From positions 10,818 to 42,817 of the forward strand of contig CANQXX010000008.1 of NCBI GenBank assembly GCA_947627905.1: 32,000 bases of DNA. The letters run 5' to 3'. Within the stretch, counting starts at the first letter, position 1; every line of letters starts with the position of its first letter. A program made the position numbers and the translations under genes. Below are positions 1,613-14,520 of this stretch, piece by piece. The notes beneath the pieces were generated by a model, which was not told where the DNA came from, did no database searches, and saw only the letters and a list, made by a program, of their open reading frames with translations. This DNA is from an uncultured Clostridia bacterium (lineage in GTDB: Bacteria > Bacillota > Clostridia > Oscillospirales > Ruminococcaceae).

Positions 1613-2110
1613 GTGAAAAAAATTCTTTTGAATATAGCAGCTGCTTTGCTGATATTTACAACAGCTTCTTTTACAAGCTCAGCCGAAGAAGCAATAGATC
1701 AGGATTCCTTGAACAAAAGCGGAAGCATGAATATTTCCTATGACGAGGAAATATCATATATGGTAACGATCCCTGCCGGAGTAACATTTGTTAATGACGG
1801 AGATAAAGAACCGATCGAAAGAGGCGTTCAGGCAAGCAATGTAAGGATAAAAGAAGGTACTTCACTGGTAGTAAATGTTGCAAGCCTAAACGATTTCAAG
1901 ATGAAAAATAACGACGGATATATAGATTATTCCCTGAACGCAAACGGCAAGACCCTTGAGGCAGGAAGTTCATATGATATCCTTGTAGTTAATGCCGGCG
2001 AAAATTCAGGCTGGGTAATACTGAGATTTATAAGCGATCTGGACAAAACAAATGCACTGTATGCAGGAACATACAGTGACACTCTTACGTTTACGGTATA
2101 TATATCGTAA
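1613..2110 (+). CDS. Secreted hypothetical protein, 165 aa, beta-rich, with a fimbrial-subunit-like C-terminal strand
   Basis: GTG start 7 nt after GGAGG (1601-1605). Sec signal peptide MKKILLNIAAALLIFTTASFTSSAEE. The C-terminus YAGTYSDTLTFTVYIS has an alternating aromatic/Thr pattern. A terminator follows. Confidence 0.75.
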   Translation: MKKILLNIAAALLIFTTASFTSSAEEAIDQDSLNKSGSMNISYDEEISYMVTIPAGVTFVNDGDKEPIERGVQASNVRIKEGTSLVVNVASLNDFKMKNNDGYIDYSLNANGKTLEAGSSYDILVVNAGENSGWVILRFISDLDKTNALYAGTYSDTLTFTVYIS

Positions 2111-2115
2111 ATTTA

Positions 2116-2149
2116 CCGCTCCCGCAAAAAACGGGAGCGGTCTTATTTT
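2116..2149. terminator. Intrinsic terminator between convergent genes, likely bidirectional
   Basis: Perfect 9-bp stem ccgctcccg / cgggagcgg with loop caaaaaa, followed by tcttatttt. An A-run within the loop and upstream flank could serve the opposite strand. Confidence 0.8.
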
Positions 2150-2170
2150 CAGCAAATAATGTAAAACTTT

Positions 2171-3460
2171 TTATAAAATATAACAAATATTTATCTGCGG
2201 AGCATTTTCTTCAATATCATTTATCTGCTCCTCGGAAATTATCGGTTCTTCATATCCGACGCATATATACCGCAAGTTTTCAAGTTCATATAACGGTCTG
2301 AAATGATCCGCCGACATATCTTCTTCCCTCATATAATGCGGAATAAACGCCGTAAGGCTGTCTGCATTTTCAAGTAAAGCAATATCATCGCCAATATAAT
2401 AATCGGCTGAAAATACCGTCAGGTTTTTCAGTCCGGATATTTTTGAAAGGTTTTCTGCCTTGTCAGGCGTGGATATTTCAAGCGAACGCAGTCCTGTAAG
2501 TTTTTCAATGCCGCTTATATCAATGACATCATCAGAAACTATCATAAGTTCCGCAAGATCGGAAAGTTCCGAAAGTTTTTCAAAGGTTTCTTCCGTTATA
2601 GATCCGGCATCGTAATTATTTATGCAAACGGACGCCGCGTCAATGGGAATTTCCAATTCCCCGATCGTAATAAATTCTTTTTCATTTTTTGTTGGAGAAT
2701 TTGCATATTCCGAACTTGTTGGCTGATCGGCAAATTCGTCTATAAAAATATCTCCGCCGCCGTTTTCGGAAATTATTTTATCGCAGTCAATAGTTTTTAT
2801 GATTTCGTATTCCGACAATGCTTTATCAAGAATGTTTTCATATCCGTTTTCGGAATTTTCCGTATAGAATTTACCGTCCACTATGCCATAATAAAAGAAA
2901 GTATCAAAATTAAAAACGCCGCTTTCAGGGAGAGTTTCTCCGCTTGCAATACACTTGACATTACCGAAATTATCCGTCTGTTCAAAGCCGTATTCGGTAA
3001 AATTATATTTGTAATACGAGGTATTCCCGATATCTTTCCAATGCGCAGCAAAGAAATATTCGTTATTTTCTTTGTCATAGCAAATTTTCAGAACGGAATA
3101 AATATAACAGTCATTTAACGGCGTCCATGTTTCATTATCGGGATCAAAATAATATAAAATAATATTTCTGCCGTATGACGCGTTCCGGACATCTATCCTT
3201 TCGGGGAAATCATCACCGTTTATATCAATAAAAATACGCCCATCAAGTTCATCATAAATTTCTCCTGCCGTTTCAATTGCCGTTTCAAGAACGGTTTTAT
3301 TTTCCGAAAGGCTGTCAATTATTTCGGGAGAAACTTCGGGGTCAATTGTCTGTTCCTTATTAATTTTTTCCGGAAAAAGACCGTCATAATTATTTTTCTG
3401 ACAAGCCGAAAAAATAATTGCCGCAAATAAAACAGCAAAAATTATTTTTATTGCTTTCAT
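2171..3460 (-). CDS. Lipoprotein with a C-terminal leucine-rich-repeat domain
   Basis: I take the internal ATG at 3460 (MKAIKIIFAVLFAAIIFSAC) as the start. It is preceded by GGAGGG, and it gives a lipobox (FSAC). The C-terminal third carries LRR-like repeats (LSDLAELMIVSD.., LTGLRSLEIS.., ISGLKNLTVFS..). Confidence 0.8.
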   Translation of the reverse strand: MKAIKIIFAVLFAAIIFSACQKNNYDGLFPEKINKEQTIDPEVSPEIIDSLSENKTVLETAIETAGEIYDELDGRIFIDINGDDFPERIDVRNASYGRNIILYYFDPDNETWTPLNDCYIYSVLKICYDKENNEYFFAAHWKDIGNTSYYKYNFTEYGFEQTDNFGNVKCIASGETLPESGVFNFDTFFYYGIVDGKFYTENSENGYENILDKALSEYEIIKTIDCDKIISENGGGDIFIDEFADQPTSSEYANSPTKNEKEFITIGELEIPIDAASVCINNYDAGSITEETFEKLSELSDLAELMIVSDDVIDISGIEKLTGLRSLEISTPDKAENLSKISGLKNLTVFSADYYIGDDIALLENADSLTAFIPHYMREEDMSADHFRPLYELENLRYICVGYEEPIISEEQINDIEENAPQINICYIL

Positions 3461-11675: not shown

Positions 11676-11704
11676 TTGACAAATCAAGAAAAAAATGTTA
11701 GAAT
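11676..11704 (+). promoter_or_regulatory. Sigma-A promoter of the thiamine operon
   Basis: TTGACA (11676-11681), 17 nt, TAGAAT (11699-11704), directly upstream of the TPP riboswitch. Confidence 0.7.
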
Positions 11705-11713
11705 ATATCTGTG

Positions 11714-11810
11714 CTATACAGGGGAGCTGCTGATTGCGGCTGAGAGGGAACAAAAACAGTTCCGACCCTTTGACCTGATACGGATAATGCCGGCGTAGGG
11801 AATTGTTCTG
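11714..11810 (+). promoter_or_regulatory. TPP (THI-box) riboswitch aptamer, canonical
   Basis: Contains GGGGAGC, a P3 hairpin (agctgc-tgatt-gcggct), CUGAGA (11740-11745), a P3a hairpin (ggaac..gttcc), GACCC, and ACCTGATACGGATAATGCCGGCGTAGGGAA. This matches the conserved core of Rfam RF00059. Confidence 0.9.
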
Positions 11811-11833
11811 ATCTTTATGTGGAATAAACGATC

Positions 11834-11868
11834 TGCCTGCGCCGCTCGGTGCAGGCAAATTTTATTTT
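11834..11868 (+). terminator. Riboswitch-controlled intrinsic terminator (expression platform)
   Basis: Stem tgcctgc / gcaggca followed by aaTTTTATTTT, immediately upstream of the thiT RBS (GGAGG). Confidence 0.8.
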
Positions 11869-11882
11869 GGAGGTAAAATCAT

Positions 11883-12455
11883 ATGAAATTTAAAACCCGT
11901 GAGCTTGTTGAAGGTGCAGTAATGGTCGCTCTTGCGTCTGCATTAAGTCTTGTTAAGATAATTGAAATGCCTTGGGGCGGCTCGGTAACGCTGCTTTCAA
12001 TGCTTCCTATCGTTGTTTACAGCATAAGATACGGAATTAAAAAAGGTCTTTTCGCTTCATTCGTTTACTCACTTTTTCAGCTTGCAACGTCGGGAGTTTT
12101 CGGCTGGGGACTGACGCCTCTCATGCTCATAGGAAGCATACTGCTCGATTATGTTCTTGCATTTACGGTCGTAGGTCTTGCGGGAATATTCCGTAACAAG
12201 GGACTTCCCGGTTACATAGGCGGAACGGTATTTGCAGGCGTATTAAGATTTATCAGTCATTTTCTCAGCGGAGTAGTTATCTGGCATTCATTCGGTGAAC
12301 TCTGGAGCGGATTTGTTACAGACAATGAATGGCTTTACAGCCTCGTTTACAATGGAGTTTATATGCTCCCGGAGATAATATTTACGGTAATAGGCGCGGT
12401 GATACTTTTCTCCGTTCCGCAGCTCAGAAAGCTTTTTGCACCGCAGGGAAATTAA
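11883..12455 (+). CDS. thiT: Thiamine transporter ThiT (ECF transporter S component)
   Basis: 190-aa multi-TM protein whose N-terminus ([31 protein letters not shown]) is typical of the ThiT family. It is the first gene after the TPP riboswitch. Confidence 0.85.
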
Positions 12456-12475: not shown

Positions 12476-13789
12476 ATGAAAAATTACAGCACTCAGATGG
12501 AAGCCGCTAAAAAAGGCATAATCACACCCGAAATGCAGACCGTCTCGGAAAAGGAATACGTTCCCGCAGAAAAAATACGGGAACTGGCCGCACTTGGACA
12601 GATAGCTATTCCTGCAAACGTTAATCACAAGTCGCTTTCCGCAGAGGGAATAGGCAAAGGACTTAAAACAAAGATAAACGTCAATCTCGGTATCTCCGGC
12701 GACTGCAAAAATTACGACGTCGAAATGGAAAAGGTAAAACTTTCACTTAAATTCGGCGCGGAAGCTATAATGGATCTGTCAAATTACGGTAAAACAAATA
12801 CTTTCCGCAGGAAGCTGATAGAAATGTCTCCTGCAATGATAGGGACCGTTCCCATGTACGACGCTATAGGCTACCTTGAAAAAGATCTGCTTGAAATCAC
12901 CGCGGAGGATTTCCTGAAAGTTGTCCGCGCTCATGCGGAAGAAGGCGTGGATTTCATGACTATCCATGCGGGGATAAACCGCCGTGCAGTCGAAGCGTTC
13001 AAGCGTGACAAACGGAAAATGAACATCGTTTCAAGAGGCGGCTCGCTGCTGTTCGCATGGATGGAAATGACCGGCAATGAAAACCCGTTCTATGAACATT
13101 ATGATGAAGTCCTTGACATTCTCCGCGAATATGACGTTACCATAAGTCTCGGCGACGCGCTCCGTCCCGGCTGTATCGACGACAGTTCCGACGGCGGACA
13201 GATAGCCGAACTTATCGAGCTTGGCGCGCTTACCGAACGCGCTTGGGCAAAGGACGTACAGGTCATGGTGGAAGGTCCGGGACACATGGCTATGAACGAA
13301 ATAGAGGCAAATATGAAATTGCAGAAACGTATCTGTCATGAAGCGCCGTTTTACGTTCTCGGACCTCTGGTAACTGATATTTTCCCCGGATACGATCACA
13401 TAACTTCCGCGATAGGAGGAGCGATCGCGGCAGCAAGCGGAGCGGATTTCCTGTGCTATGTCACACCTGCGGAGCATCTCCGTCTGCCTGATATAGACGA
13501 TGTAAGGGAAGGCATAATCGCTTCAAAAATAGCCGCCCACGCTGCCGACATTGCAAAGGGCGTTCCTCATGCAAGAGACCGTGATAATGAAATGGCTGAA
13601 GCGCGCCACAAGGTAGACTGGGACGAAATGTTCAGAATAGCCGTAGATCCGGACAAAGCAAAGGCTTATTTTGAAAGCACTCCCCCGTCCGACAGGCATA
13701 CCTGTTCGATGTGCGGAAAAATGTGTGCGGTCCGGACCACAAACATGATACTTGAAGGCAAAAAGGTAGAATTTTGCACGGAAAAATGA
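12476..13789 (+). CDS. thiC: Phosphomethylpyrimidine synthase ThiC (radical SAM)
   Basis: ATG at 12476 follows GGAGGG. It starts [20 protein letters not shown], contains VMVEGPGH and the C-terminal CSMCGKMCA cluster motif. The upstream 49 codons of the supplied ORF overlap thiT and are rejected. Confidence 0.95.
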
Positions 13790-13852
13790 TATTTCAGCAT
13801 TGCTGCTTTGAAATATACGCCGGCGGAGGAGCGTCCGAGGGCGTAATAAATT

Positions 13853-13964
13853 CTGCGAGGGAACCCGTGTTTCGGGGTGAGAGGAGACTTTCAAGTCTCG
13901 ACCGATCTGTCCCAATGGACGGAGTCTGCCCCGCAGTACTCTCCTTTCGGGACAGGAAGGAGGA
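13853..13964 (+). promoter_or_regulatory. Atypical TPP-riboswitch-like leader RNA with an SD-sequestering expression platform, upstream of thiW
   Basis: P1 CUGCG (13853-57) / CGCAG (13932-36). P3 CCCG-UGUUU-CGGG. GUGAGA (13877-82). P3a GAGAC-UUUCAA-GUCUC. GACC. A GAUC-CUGUCC-CAAU-GGACGG arm. Anti-SD CUCCUUUC (13941-48) pairs with SD GGAAGGAG (13955-62). GAGAGGAGA (13879-87) is complementary to UCUCCUUUC (13940-48). The canonical ACCUGAUCUGGAUAAUGCCAGCGUAGGGA block is absent. Confidence 0.5.
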
Positions 13965-13971
13965 TATTACA

Positions 13972-14520
13972 ATGAACAAAAACAGCAAAACAAACATCAG
14001 AAAACTTGCAGCAGCTGCACTTCTAACCGCAGTTGCCGTTGTGGGATCGCTTTTTTCGTTCCCGTTCCTTGGCGCGAAATGCAGTCCGGTACAGCATCTG
14101 GTGAACATAATCGGAGGCGTTTACTTAGGACCGTGGTACGCTATGGGTTCAGCATTCTGTGCAAGTCTTATACGTCTGCTGCTTGGGCTCGGTTCGCCGC
14201 TTGCTTTCCCCGGCTCAATGGTGGGAGCGCTTCTTTCCGGAGCAATGTATCACATGATCCTCAAGCACAAAGGACAATGGATACGCCTTATCGGAGCTTA
14301 TATCGGAGAGCTTTTCGGAACATCGGTGATAGGCGGTATGCTTTCATTCCCTATTGCATATTTTGTTATGGAAAATACTGCCGCAACACTTTTCGGCTTT
14401 GTATTCCCGTTCTTTGTTTCCAGTGTTGTAGGAACGGTGGCGGCGTCTATAATAGTTTCTTCAATGAAAAAAGCAAGACTGCTCGAGATCTTTGACGACG
14501 AAGAAAAAGCAAAAAACTGA
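13972..14520 (+). CDS. thiW: ThiW, ECF-type S component for the thiazole precursor (hydroxyethylthiazole)
   Basis: ATG at 13972 lies 8 nt after GGAAGGAGG. The 182-aa multi-TM protein (..FPFLGAKCSPVQHLVNIIGGVYLGPWYA..GSPLAFPGSMVGALLSG..) sits immediately upstream of thiM, which is the usual ThiW context. Confidence 0.8.
   Translation: MNKNSKTNIRKLAAAALLTAVAVVGSLFSFPFLGAKCSPVQHLVNIIGGVYLGPWYAMGSAFCASLIRLLLGLGSPLAFPGSMVGALLSGAMYHMILKHKGQWIRLIGAYIGELFGTSVIGGMLSFPIAYFVMENTAATLFGFVFPFFVSSVVGTVAASIIVSSMKKARLLEIFDDEEKAKN

Follow-up and report, generated by a model that had tools for sequence, protein, structure and literature searches.

A conserved RNA family upstream of thiW in gut Clostridia, a candidate riboswitch class derived from the thiamin pyrophosphate aptamer

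Introduction

Thiamin pyrophosphate (TPP) riboswitches make up the most widespread riboswitch class. The CUGAGA loop of the canonical aptamer holds the hydroxymethylpyrimidine (HMP) ring of TPP, as crystal structures of the TPP aptamer show, and canonical aptamers bind the pyrophosphate via Mg2+ with the GAU of the junction J4/5 and the GCG of J5/4. Here we describe the RNA between thiC and thiW in a 32,000-nucleotide stretch of DNA from an uncultured Clostridia bacterium of the Ruminococcaceae (contig CANQXX010000008.1, positions 10,818 to 42,817; hereafter the window), which an original prediction made from the sequence alone had taken for a second, noncanonical TPP-like riboswitch inside a thiamin operon. 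This spacer RNA is a member of a conserved, widespread, and apparently undescribed RNA family rather than a one-off or a relic. On balance, though as a close call, we read the family as a thiW-specific riboswitch class that would derive from the TPP aptamer, bind a ligand containing the HMP ring, and act as a translational OFF switch through the Shine-Dalgarno (SD) sequence.

Several described systems come close to this family. The HMP pyrophosphate (HMP-PP) riboswitch, or thiS motif, is a small, terminator-embedded aptamer that works as a transcriptional ON switch (Atilho et al. 2019, PMC6478431). Like the RNA described here, it serves thiazole-branch genes including thiW and often lies directly downstream of a complete TPP riboswitch in a two-input arrangement; the thiW-associated RNA differs from it in being about 120 nt long and derived from the TPP aptamer, in having SD platforms that lean toward OFF control, and in showing no sequence similarity to it. 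Sherlock et al. (2022), citing unpublished findings of the Breaker laboratory, mention that some RNAs grouped with TPP riboswitches have shifted to thiamin or thiamin monophosphate (TMP) (PMC9481103). These TPP-related variants, some of them in tandem with TPP riboswitches, have an altered phosphate-end preference, which is what the loss of the pyrophosphate arm would predict. The thiW family may be identical to one of them; PMC9481103 gives no sequences or structures for these variants. Other variant classes reuse a parent scaffold, as when guanine riboswitches turn to 2'-deoxyguanosine or xanthine or in the flavin mononucleotide (FMN) variants; these keep the parent fold and most pocket nucleotides with few diagnostic changes, and they share with the thiW family a distinct, narrow gene association. 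The thiW family goes beyond such point changes in the pocket, having lost a whole sensor arm and gained a hairpin. We found no description of the thiW family in the papers searched and no matching family in Rfam 15, and neither Rfam 15 nor those papers record a published natural class of TPP variants whose specificity is altered; the SR-PAGE preprint concerns in vitro selection, not natural variants.

Results and Discussion

The gap between the thiC stop and the thiW ATG measures 182 nt, as originally described, and the ordered TPP-like elements proposed for it are all present. Its parts, some of which are named here for the first time, are as follows.

13816-13845, + strand: hairpin A, with outer stem UACGCC/GGCGUA, inner stem CGGA/UCCG, and hexaloop GGAGCG at 13828-13833; in the minimum free energy (MFE) structure
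13846-13852, + strand: linker between hairpin A and P1; elsewhere in the family 20-230 nt, often with an additional hairpin
13853-13857, + strand: P1 5' strand, CUGCG; pairs with 13932-36 in the MFE structure
13855-13863, + strand: GCGAGGGAA, invariant; top of P1, junction, and 5' strand of a P2-like helix
13864-13876, + strand: P3 hairpin, stem CCCG/CGGG (4 bp), loop UGUUU; falls on P3 in the RF00059 alignment
13877-13883, + strand: J3-2, GUGAGAG, invariant; aligns to UGAGA of RF00059 and is the counterpart of the canonical CUGAGA
13884-13899, + strand: P3a hairpin, GAGACU/AGUCUC with loop UUCA
13899-13904, + strand: CGACCG, 3' strand of the P2-like helix; CGACCC in the canonical aptamer
13905-13931, + strand: variable third arm at the P4/P5 position; GAU, then the hairpin CUGUCC-CAAU-GGACGG at 13907-22
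13932-13936, + strand: P1 3' strand, CGCAG; pairs with 13853-57 in the MFE structure
13940-13963, + strand: SD-sequestering hairpin, with anti-SD UCUCCUUUC at 13940-48, loop GGGACA, and SD GGAAGGAGG at 13955-63; in the MFE structure

The spacer folds more stably than its shuffled versions (z = -3.5), and in its MFE structure (-74.3 kcal/mol) the aptamer is folded while the SD sits in a separate 9-bp hairpin. The closing helix P1 proposed earlier (CUGCG/CGCAG) is present and paired in this structure and shows double changes across the family; the alternative closing helix CGGGG/CCCCG proposed beside it was dropped, as it would break the covarying P3 and has no counterpart in relatives. The P2-like helix is short, with the GG of GCGAGGGAA (GGG at 13859-61) pairing with the CC of CGACCG. 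Read directly, GCGAGGGAA resembles the canonical 5' AGGGG and also the canonical 3' GCGUAGGGAA.

When all 4227 families of Rfam 15 were run against the spacer, the TPP model RF00059 gave no full-length match, reaching 17.1 bits (E 0.55) with the 5' half only, against a gathering cut-off of 54.3 bits. P2, P3, UGAGA, P3a, and ACC align at high posterior probability (model positions 11-60), and the P4/P5 half is skipped. No other relevant Rfam 15 family matches the spacer, and the HMP-PP (thiS motif) model finds nothing in it even at E values up to 10. The description of the element as TPP derived but noncanonical, with the pyrimidine-sensor half retained and the pyrophosphate-sensor half not conserved, is thus borne out. 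Of the absences reported with it, CUUUGACCU and the 3' GCGUAGGGAA are indeed missing, but GCGAGGGAA is present on the 5' side, at 13855-63.

ThiW relatives were aligned and 80 genome loci were fetched via the ThiW protein alone, and metagenome contigs were scanned with a DNA pattern made of three conserved junction strings only, which yielded at least 120 matching stretches. Loci L131, L161, L179, L187, and L199 were discarded as chance pattern matches in unrelated GC-rich DNA; all other stretches found in this way belong to the family. The variant core is found in at least 154 loci from genomes and metagenomes of gut Clostridia, frequently in Oscillospiraceae, Ruminococcus, and Mediterraneibacter of human and animal guts, and the leaders of the closest ThiW-anchored loci carry the same core. 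A covariance model of the 48-nt core, applied to the 80 ThiW-anchored loci, places it directly 5' of thiW in 41 of them at 40-75 bits, whereas canonical TPP 5' halves, including the window's own, score no higher than 30 bits; because no intermediate scores occur, the variant and the canonical aptamer are discrete kinds. The same search brought out a second subgroup in which GCGAUGGGAAG replaces GCGAGGGAAC and GCGAUGGGAA stands in place of GCGAGGGAA; the cultured Angelakisella massiliensis Marseille-P3217T (locus L039) belongs to it.

Across more than 100 independent loci, the helices of homologous leaders are strongly conserved and covary; this outcome, like the lack of a full-length RF00059 match, favors the original prediction, which either test could have refuted. 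The junction sequences GCGAGGGAA, GAGGGAA, GUGAGAGG, and CGACCG are invariant across 45 distinct cores, the sole deviation from CGACCG being UAAACCG in L074; since the loci fetched via ThiW alone show the same, this invariance was not imposed by the search pattern. In P3, 100% of cells are paired and three of the four pairs are compensatory (CG/UA, CG/GC/UA, and CG/UA), and in P3a four of six pairs have double changes; the P3/P3a covariation score was reached by none of 500 shuffles, and slid controls collapse. P1 starts with an invariant GC(G) and varies freely beyond it (UAUUUUCAGC/GCUGAAAAUA, GACGCAGC/GCUGCGUC, and AACUAAAUAGC/GCUAUUUAGUU). Its duplex has a mean z of -2.0, with 40 of 90 unique sequences beating 95% of their shuffles, and 7 of 10 pairs have double changes in an anchored alignment where the 3' partner was picked by best duplex, so that a selection caveat applies. 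RNAalifold on 16 diverse members recovered hairpin A, P3, and P3a independently; on full-length sequences it did not recover P1, MAFFT being unable to align the variable third arm.

One member departs from this picture within the core. In L005 (~2290-2400), an AT-rich insertion of ~77 nt, which forms a long inverted repeat, takes the place of the P3 loop, making this the only member without a UGUUY loop. The canonical TPP P3 tolerates extension, and the insertion may be either an extended P3, an inserted element, or an assembly artifact.

Compared with RF00059, the variant shares the domain-closing P1, a P2-like GG/CC helix, P3, the UGAGA junction, an optional P3a, and CGACC, all in the identical order and nearly identical in sequence to the canonical TPP riboswitches of the same genomes. 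It also shares the thiamin-gene context and a predicted translational control via the SD. Invariant junctions and covarying P3 and P3a define a kept pyrimidine-sensor arm, comprising P2, P3, the J3-2 (C)UGAGA, and ACC(C). In contrast, the pyrophosphate-sensor arm (P4-J4/5-P5-J5/4, ACCUGAU...GCGUAGGGA) is not present in the window, and the pyrophosphate-binding nucleotides of the canonical aptamer are absent throughout the family. The variant further differs in its shortened P2, in the lack of a conserved P4/P5 with a third arm that is variable or absent, in the added invariant 5' GGAGCG-loop hairpin outside P1, and in standing before thiW only. None of the variant cores in 20 related loci reaches the RF00059 cut-off, whereas the adjoining canonical copies score 55-74 bits. 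On the pocket side, comparison with canonical copies of the same genomes reveals a G-to-A difference at an unpaired P2/P3 position, CGACCG for CGACCC, an invariant GCG at the P1 junction, and, in subgroup 2 only, an additional U.

The third arm had been seen as rearranged, but no rearrangement is conserved: the arm varies, some lineages lack it, and neither its sequence nor its length is conserved across the family. In the wider clade around the window the arm is a simple hairpin, sometimes with an L5-like GAUAA(U) loop; such loops occur in the L009/L011/L160 clades. In subgroup 2 it takes the form of a P4-like ACCUUCC/GGAAGG helix closing a variable insert. It is minimal in L067 (ACCUUUAUGGGAA), and Mediterraneibacter leaders of the L054 type have only 2 nt between CGACCG and the P1 3' strand and no third arm at all. 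A circular or noncircular permutation, in which hairpin A would be P4/P5 moved from its place in the TPP aptamer, was considered and rejected, since hairpin A is a simple stem-loop that lacks the J4/5-J5/4 internal loop and many members keep a remnant third arm where the canonical one stands. PMC10085705, a paper on permutations, makes no mention of TPP.

The gene association is narrow. Among the matches listed, thiW comes first downstream of the core in 149 of the 149 loci whose sequence extends far enough, pattern-only metagenome loci included, usually followed by thiM-thiE(-thiD), and thiC lies directly upstream in at least 67 loci. The three divergent ThiW types found behind the variant all match PF09512 and TIGR02359. 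Twelve of 20 scanned loci have a complete RF00059 riboswitch at the curated threshold 120-270 nt upstream on the same strand, each with its own terminator, and three Mediterraneibacter loci of the 20 have a canonical riboswitch between thiW and thiM; by regular expression, at least 27 loci carry a canonical TPP riboswitch in tandem upstream and at least 24 a canonical copy downstream before thiM. Association with genes of hydroxyethylthiazole phosphate (HET-P) supply and tandems with TPP riboswitches, as known for the HMP-PP riboswitch, is found here as well. The partition is strict, with the variant before thiW only and the canonical copies before thiM, thiC, or thiT in the same clusters; this is the main argument, short of proof, for a function of the variant that the canonical aptamer lacks. 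The separate gating of the genes from thiW onward and of thiT-thiC, as originally suggested, is supported.

This partition is poorly explained by one and the same ligand. A family that still sensed TPP by a different, "TPP-II"-like architecture, with the tandem merely sharpening the dose response, would be in keeping with the conserved pyrimidine pocket, with platforms that lean OFF, and with the known tandems of same-ligand riboswitches, 213 TPP-TPP arrangements included (PMC9481103). However, all nucleotides known to hold the pyrophosphate are absent, and with thiW behind the variant in every one of the 149 listed loci and canonical copies before other genes, we find this explanation rather improbable.

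The same association could be turned toward the other half of the vitamin. An exclusive link to the gene of a predicted thiazole transporter, and the Mediterraneibacter arrangement in which thiW alone stands behind the variant while thiM-thiE is under a canonical TPP riboswitch, would suit a remodeled pocket that senses the thiazole moiety (HET, HET-P, or carboxythiazole) of the ThiW/ThiM substrate branch, and the G-to-A and CGACCC-to-CGACCG differences could be read as signs of such remodeling. But the UGAGA loop and its flanks, which are aminopyrimidine specific in canonical aptamers, are unchanged, and we know of no precedent for thiazole sensing, so that the prospects of this reading appear slim.

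The most distinctive conserved feature of the family is hairpin A, which the original prediction passed over although it lies within the span covered. It is positioned 26-234 nt upstream of the core, and its hexaloop is GGAGCG in nearly all members; in the few that have GGAGCU or GGAGCA, no other position changes to compensate. Of 119 unique loci, 112 have a hairpin with a GGAGCN loop and the remaining 7 have GGAGCG with an interrupted stem; among 380 control windows, only 2 have such a hairpin. All four loop-adjacent pairs are compensatory, the closing pair switching from G-C to A-U, with pairing in 99.3% of cells. L087 and L137 have a sigma-70-type promoter immediately 5' of hairpin A, which makes the hairpin part of the leader transcript. 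An unusual leader is that of L152, where the hairpin A loop is GGGAGCU, 201 nt upstream of the core, and four direct copies of a ~25-nt unit with ACAUCAUUU(G) fill the region ~60-160 nt upstream of the core, between the two.

In L087, L137, L154, and L191, the SD is sequestered downstream of the core by a terminator-like hairpin whose 5' strand contains CGCUCCUC, an 8-bp perfect complement of the loop region GGGGAGCG; GUUCC of L047 has a weaker complementarity to the hairpin A loop, which is not general. These complements hint that the loop may act as an SD mimic in some lineages. The SD-like loop, its complements in several platforms (CGCUCC in L087 and GUUCC in L047), and the constitutive look of the window's SD hairpin could even be taken to mean that no small molecule is sensed, the leader being recognized by a protein or the ribosome (the GGAG loop as a standby site or decoy) or being a decaying TPP riboswitch. 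Decay is ruled out by conservation, invariant junctions, and compensatory changes in four helices over many taxa, and the nucleotides conserved in single-stranded regions are those that make up the ligand pocket of a known aptamer; we give an explanation without a ligand very little credence.

The predicted anti-SD/SD pairing of the window is real and extends over 9 bp (13940-48 with 13955-63), and the SD has an unpaired probability of about 0 in the free ensemble. Of the mutually exclusive pairing proposed between the core at 13879-87 and the anti-SD at 13940-48, the 9-bp complementarity stands, with one G-U pair, but the resulting fold lies 16.6 kcal/mol above the MFE structure. L001 shares the SD hairpin. 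L002 has it 130 nt farther from P1, with ~130 nt (~2340-2470) inserted between the P1 3' strand and the hairpin CUCCUUUC-GGGACA-GAAAGGAG; because this insertion leaves it otherwise the same as the window's, the SD hairpin behaves like a module independent of its distance from the aptamer.

Expression platforms vary between lineages. In short leaders (the L082 group, L114/L132, and L190), the sole partner for the P1 5' strand is the ribosome-binding site (RBS), and in a Ruminococcus-type clade and others a GC-rich hairpin encloses the P1 3' strand, such that P1 formation removes the hairpin and the SD becomes paired. Counted over unique sequences, the P1 3' strand overlaps the RBS in 12, P1 formation closes the SD in 17 and opens it in 8, and 36 are unchanged. 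By these counts the OFF direction that had been claimed for the window is the likelier one family-wide. The platform modeling leans OFF by roughly 2:1, with the reservations that P1 is long in many members and that the sequences are phylogenetically clustered. A comparison of free and aptamer-constrained SD accessibility was set aside, the aptamer fold being the ground state in most members and the constraints having mis-assigned P1 in some. A general long-range pairing between the 5' leader and the RBS was tried and dropped (mean z of -0.26, not family-wide); the one clade in which such pairing is real is L007/L010/L011/L013, with AAUGAUAC/GUAUCAUU replaced by UUUGAUAC/GUAUCAAA.

The platforms bear directly on an alternative of opposite sign, an ON switch for HMP-PP (or HMP-P) that would use the TPP pyrimidine arm and make up a second HMP-PP class. 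High HMP-PP with low TPP would then turn on thiazole import and coupling, the "NOT TPP AND HMP-PP" logic of the thiS motif. Keeping the HMP pocket and losing the distant pyrophosphate arm would suit phosphates attached directly to the HMP ring, which the invariant GCG, 2-3 bp from the pocket, could serve, and the tandem after a complete TPP riboswitch and terminator before thiW matches the published TPP/HMP-PP tandem on thiW (PMC6478431, PMC9481103). The L082 group has an anti-SD that shares sequence with the optional inner hairpin and, as long as the aptamer is unfolded, pairs with the SD, and 8 unique platforms open the SD on P1 formation. However, the P1 3' strand of short leaders is the RBS itself, 17 of the longer platforms close the SD compared with these 8, in no member is the P1 3' strand an obvious anti-terminator or anti-sequestor, and there is neither an Rfam thiS-motif match nor a terminator-embedded aptamer. 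We consider an HMP-PP ON switch unlikely, if still a real contender.

Several observations weigh against the OFF switch with an HMP-ring ligand that we favor. In the folding model, the ground state of the window is already aptamer folded and SD sequestered, and the helix of an ON state carries the full cost of 16.6 kcal/mol. The platforms are mixed, with 8 unique sequences of opposite behavior and 36 without effect. P1 is 11-17 bp in many members, and a helix of this length should need no ligand to form, an unusual property in a P1-gated switch. Most member sequences come from a few related clades, so that the counts are not independent events. By analogy, the niche in tandem before thiW is one shared with the HMP-PP riboswitch, an ON switch. 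Finally, inspection by eye of the core junctions, P3 loop, linker, and platforms revealed no conserved Watson-Crick complement of the GGAGCG loop.

The operon around the spacer, whose gene order thiT-thiC-thiW-thiM-thiE-thiD is borne out by Pfam, has these features.

11676-11857, + strand: operon head, with promoter, canonical TPP riboswitch at 11710-11819, and intrinsic terminator at 11834-11857
11883-12455: thiT (Pfam)
12476-13789: thiC (Pfam)
13972-14520, + strand: thiW (PF09512, 1.8e-42; TIGR02359), the presumed regulated gene, followed by thiM, thiE, and thiD

The promoter-like site TTGACA-17-TAGAAT (11676-11704) has 11 of 12 matches and an extended -10, the canonical riboswitch scores 68 bits with RF00059, and the terminator has 10 pairs and a U-tract. 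Because the operon head is a complete promoter-TPP riboswitch-terminator unit, the distal operon genes are under two RNA elements in series. The best candidate in the window for a promoter of thiW's own is a weak 9/12 match at 13745-72, within the end of thiC, and internal-operon control of thiW is assumed for this reason; the stretch from the variant core to thiW in the window yielded no terminator.

The surroundings of the element in relatives show further variation. Between the thiC stop and hairpin A, the window has an AU-rich hairpin, UAUUUCAGCAUUGCUGCUUUGAAAUA (13790-13815), with no U-tract after it; L001 has it too, as does L004 with the inner pairs changed in compensatory fashion from AGC/GCU to GGC/GCC, and distant relatives have at this site a CCGC...GCGG hairpin with a U-rich tail, resembling a weak thiC terminator. 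In the tandem loci L042, L047, L053, L065, L067, L070, L074, L076, L080, and L082, an SD-like GAAAGGAGG occurs 20-60 nt past the TPP terminator with no convincing start codon after it, and further on a variable hairpin abuts hairpin A; this GAAAGGAGG may have remained from an ancestral junction of riboswitch and gene, or it may be a functional decoy. L074 has two divergent canonical TPP riboswitches ~80 nt apart, at 1921-2028 (-) and 2110-2213 (+), the one on the + strand being in tandem with the variant. Some ThiW proteins (L082, L086, L095, and L152) are ~240 aa long rather than ~180 aa, with a C-terminal extension and extra hydrophobic segments.

A covarying structured aptamer, a consistent gene association, and an adjoining platform are general marks of a riboswitch, and as far as sequence comparison can tell the family has all three. 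In our favored reading of an HMP-ring ligand and translational OFF control, the RNA would bind a thiamin-family compound through the HMP ring, and the remainder of the ligand would be read by the new elements, the GCG junction and/or the GGAGCG hairpin. The kept HMP pocket argues for an HMP-containing ligand and the lost pyrophosphate arm against TPP as canonically read; thiamin or TMP would be the likeliest, and TPP read differently is possible. The thiW-thiM-thiE branch makes TMP directly, and an OFF switch placed there would fit feedback by a product, TMP or thiamin. The statement in PMC9481103 on RNAs that favor thiamin or TMP agrees with this. The earlier idea of an altered ligand, with the HMP ring kept and a different phosphate end, would fit the anatomy and the tandem arrangements.

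Mechanistically, the ligand would stabilize P1 and the compact fold and thereby lower thiW translation. In short-leader relatives the P1 3' strand would itself be the ribosome-binding site, and in several longer leaders P1 formation would break a competing hairpin and free the anti-SD. The window would need a cotranscriptional trap for its unbound ON state, in which the anti-SD first pairs with the exposed GAGAGGAGA of the unliganded core. Together with the operon-head TPP riboswitch and terminator, this would place thiW-thiM-thiE-thiD under two inputs. More broadly, and tentatively, the family can be proposed as a new TPP-derived class without the pyrophosphate arm and with the GGAGCG hairpin that would sense a thiamin-pathway compound other than TPP (thiamin/TMP, HMP-PP, or thiazole) and form two-input gates with canonical TPP riboswitches in abundant gut Clostridia.

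Conclusions

The existence, structure, and gene association of the thiW family are well supported; its ligand and direction of control we infer. A family that keeps one sensor arm, loses the other, and gains an element would show how aptamers are re-tooled, and it may add a new ligand to the thiamin regulatory repertoire. Its tandem and split arrangements with canonical TPP riboswitches offer natural two-input gates, for which a cultured carrier, Angelakisella massiliensis Marseille-P3217T, exists. Exchange of vitamin B1 precursors shapes gut communities, and knowing the signal that governs thiazole uptake would make this exchange testable.

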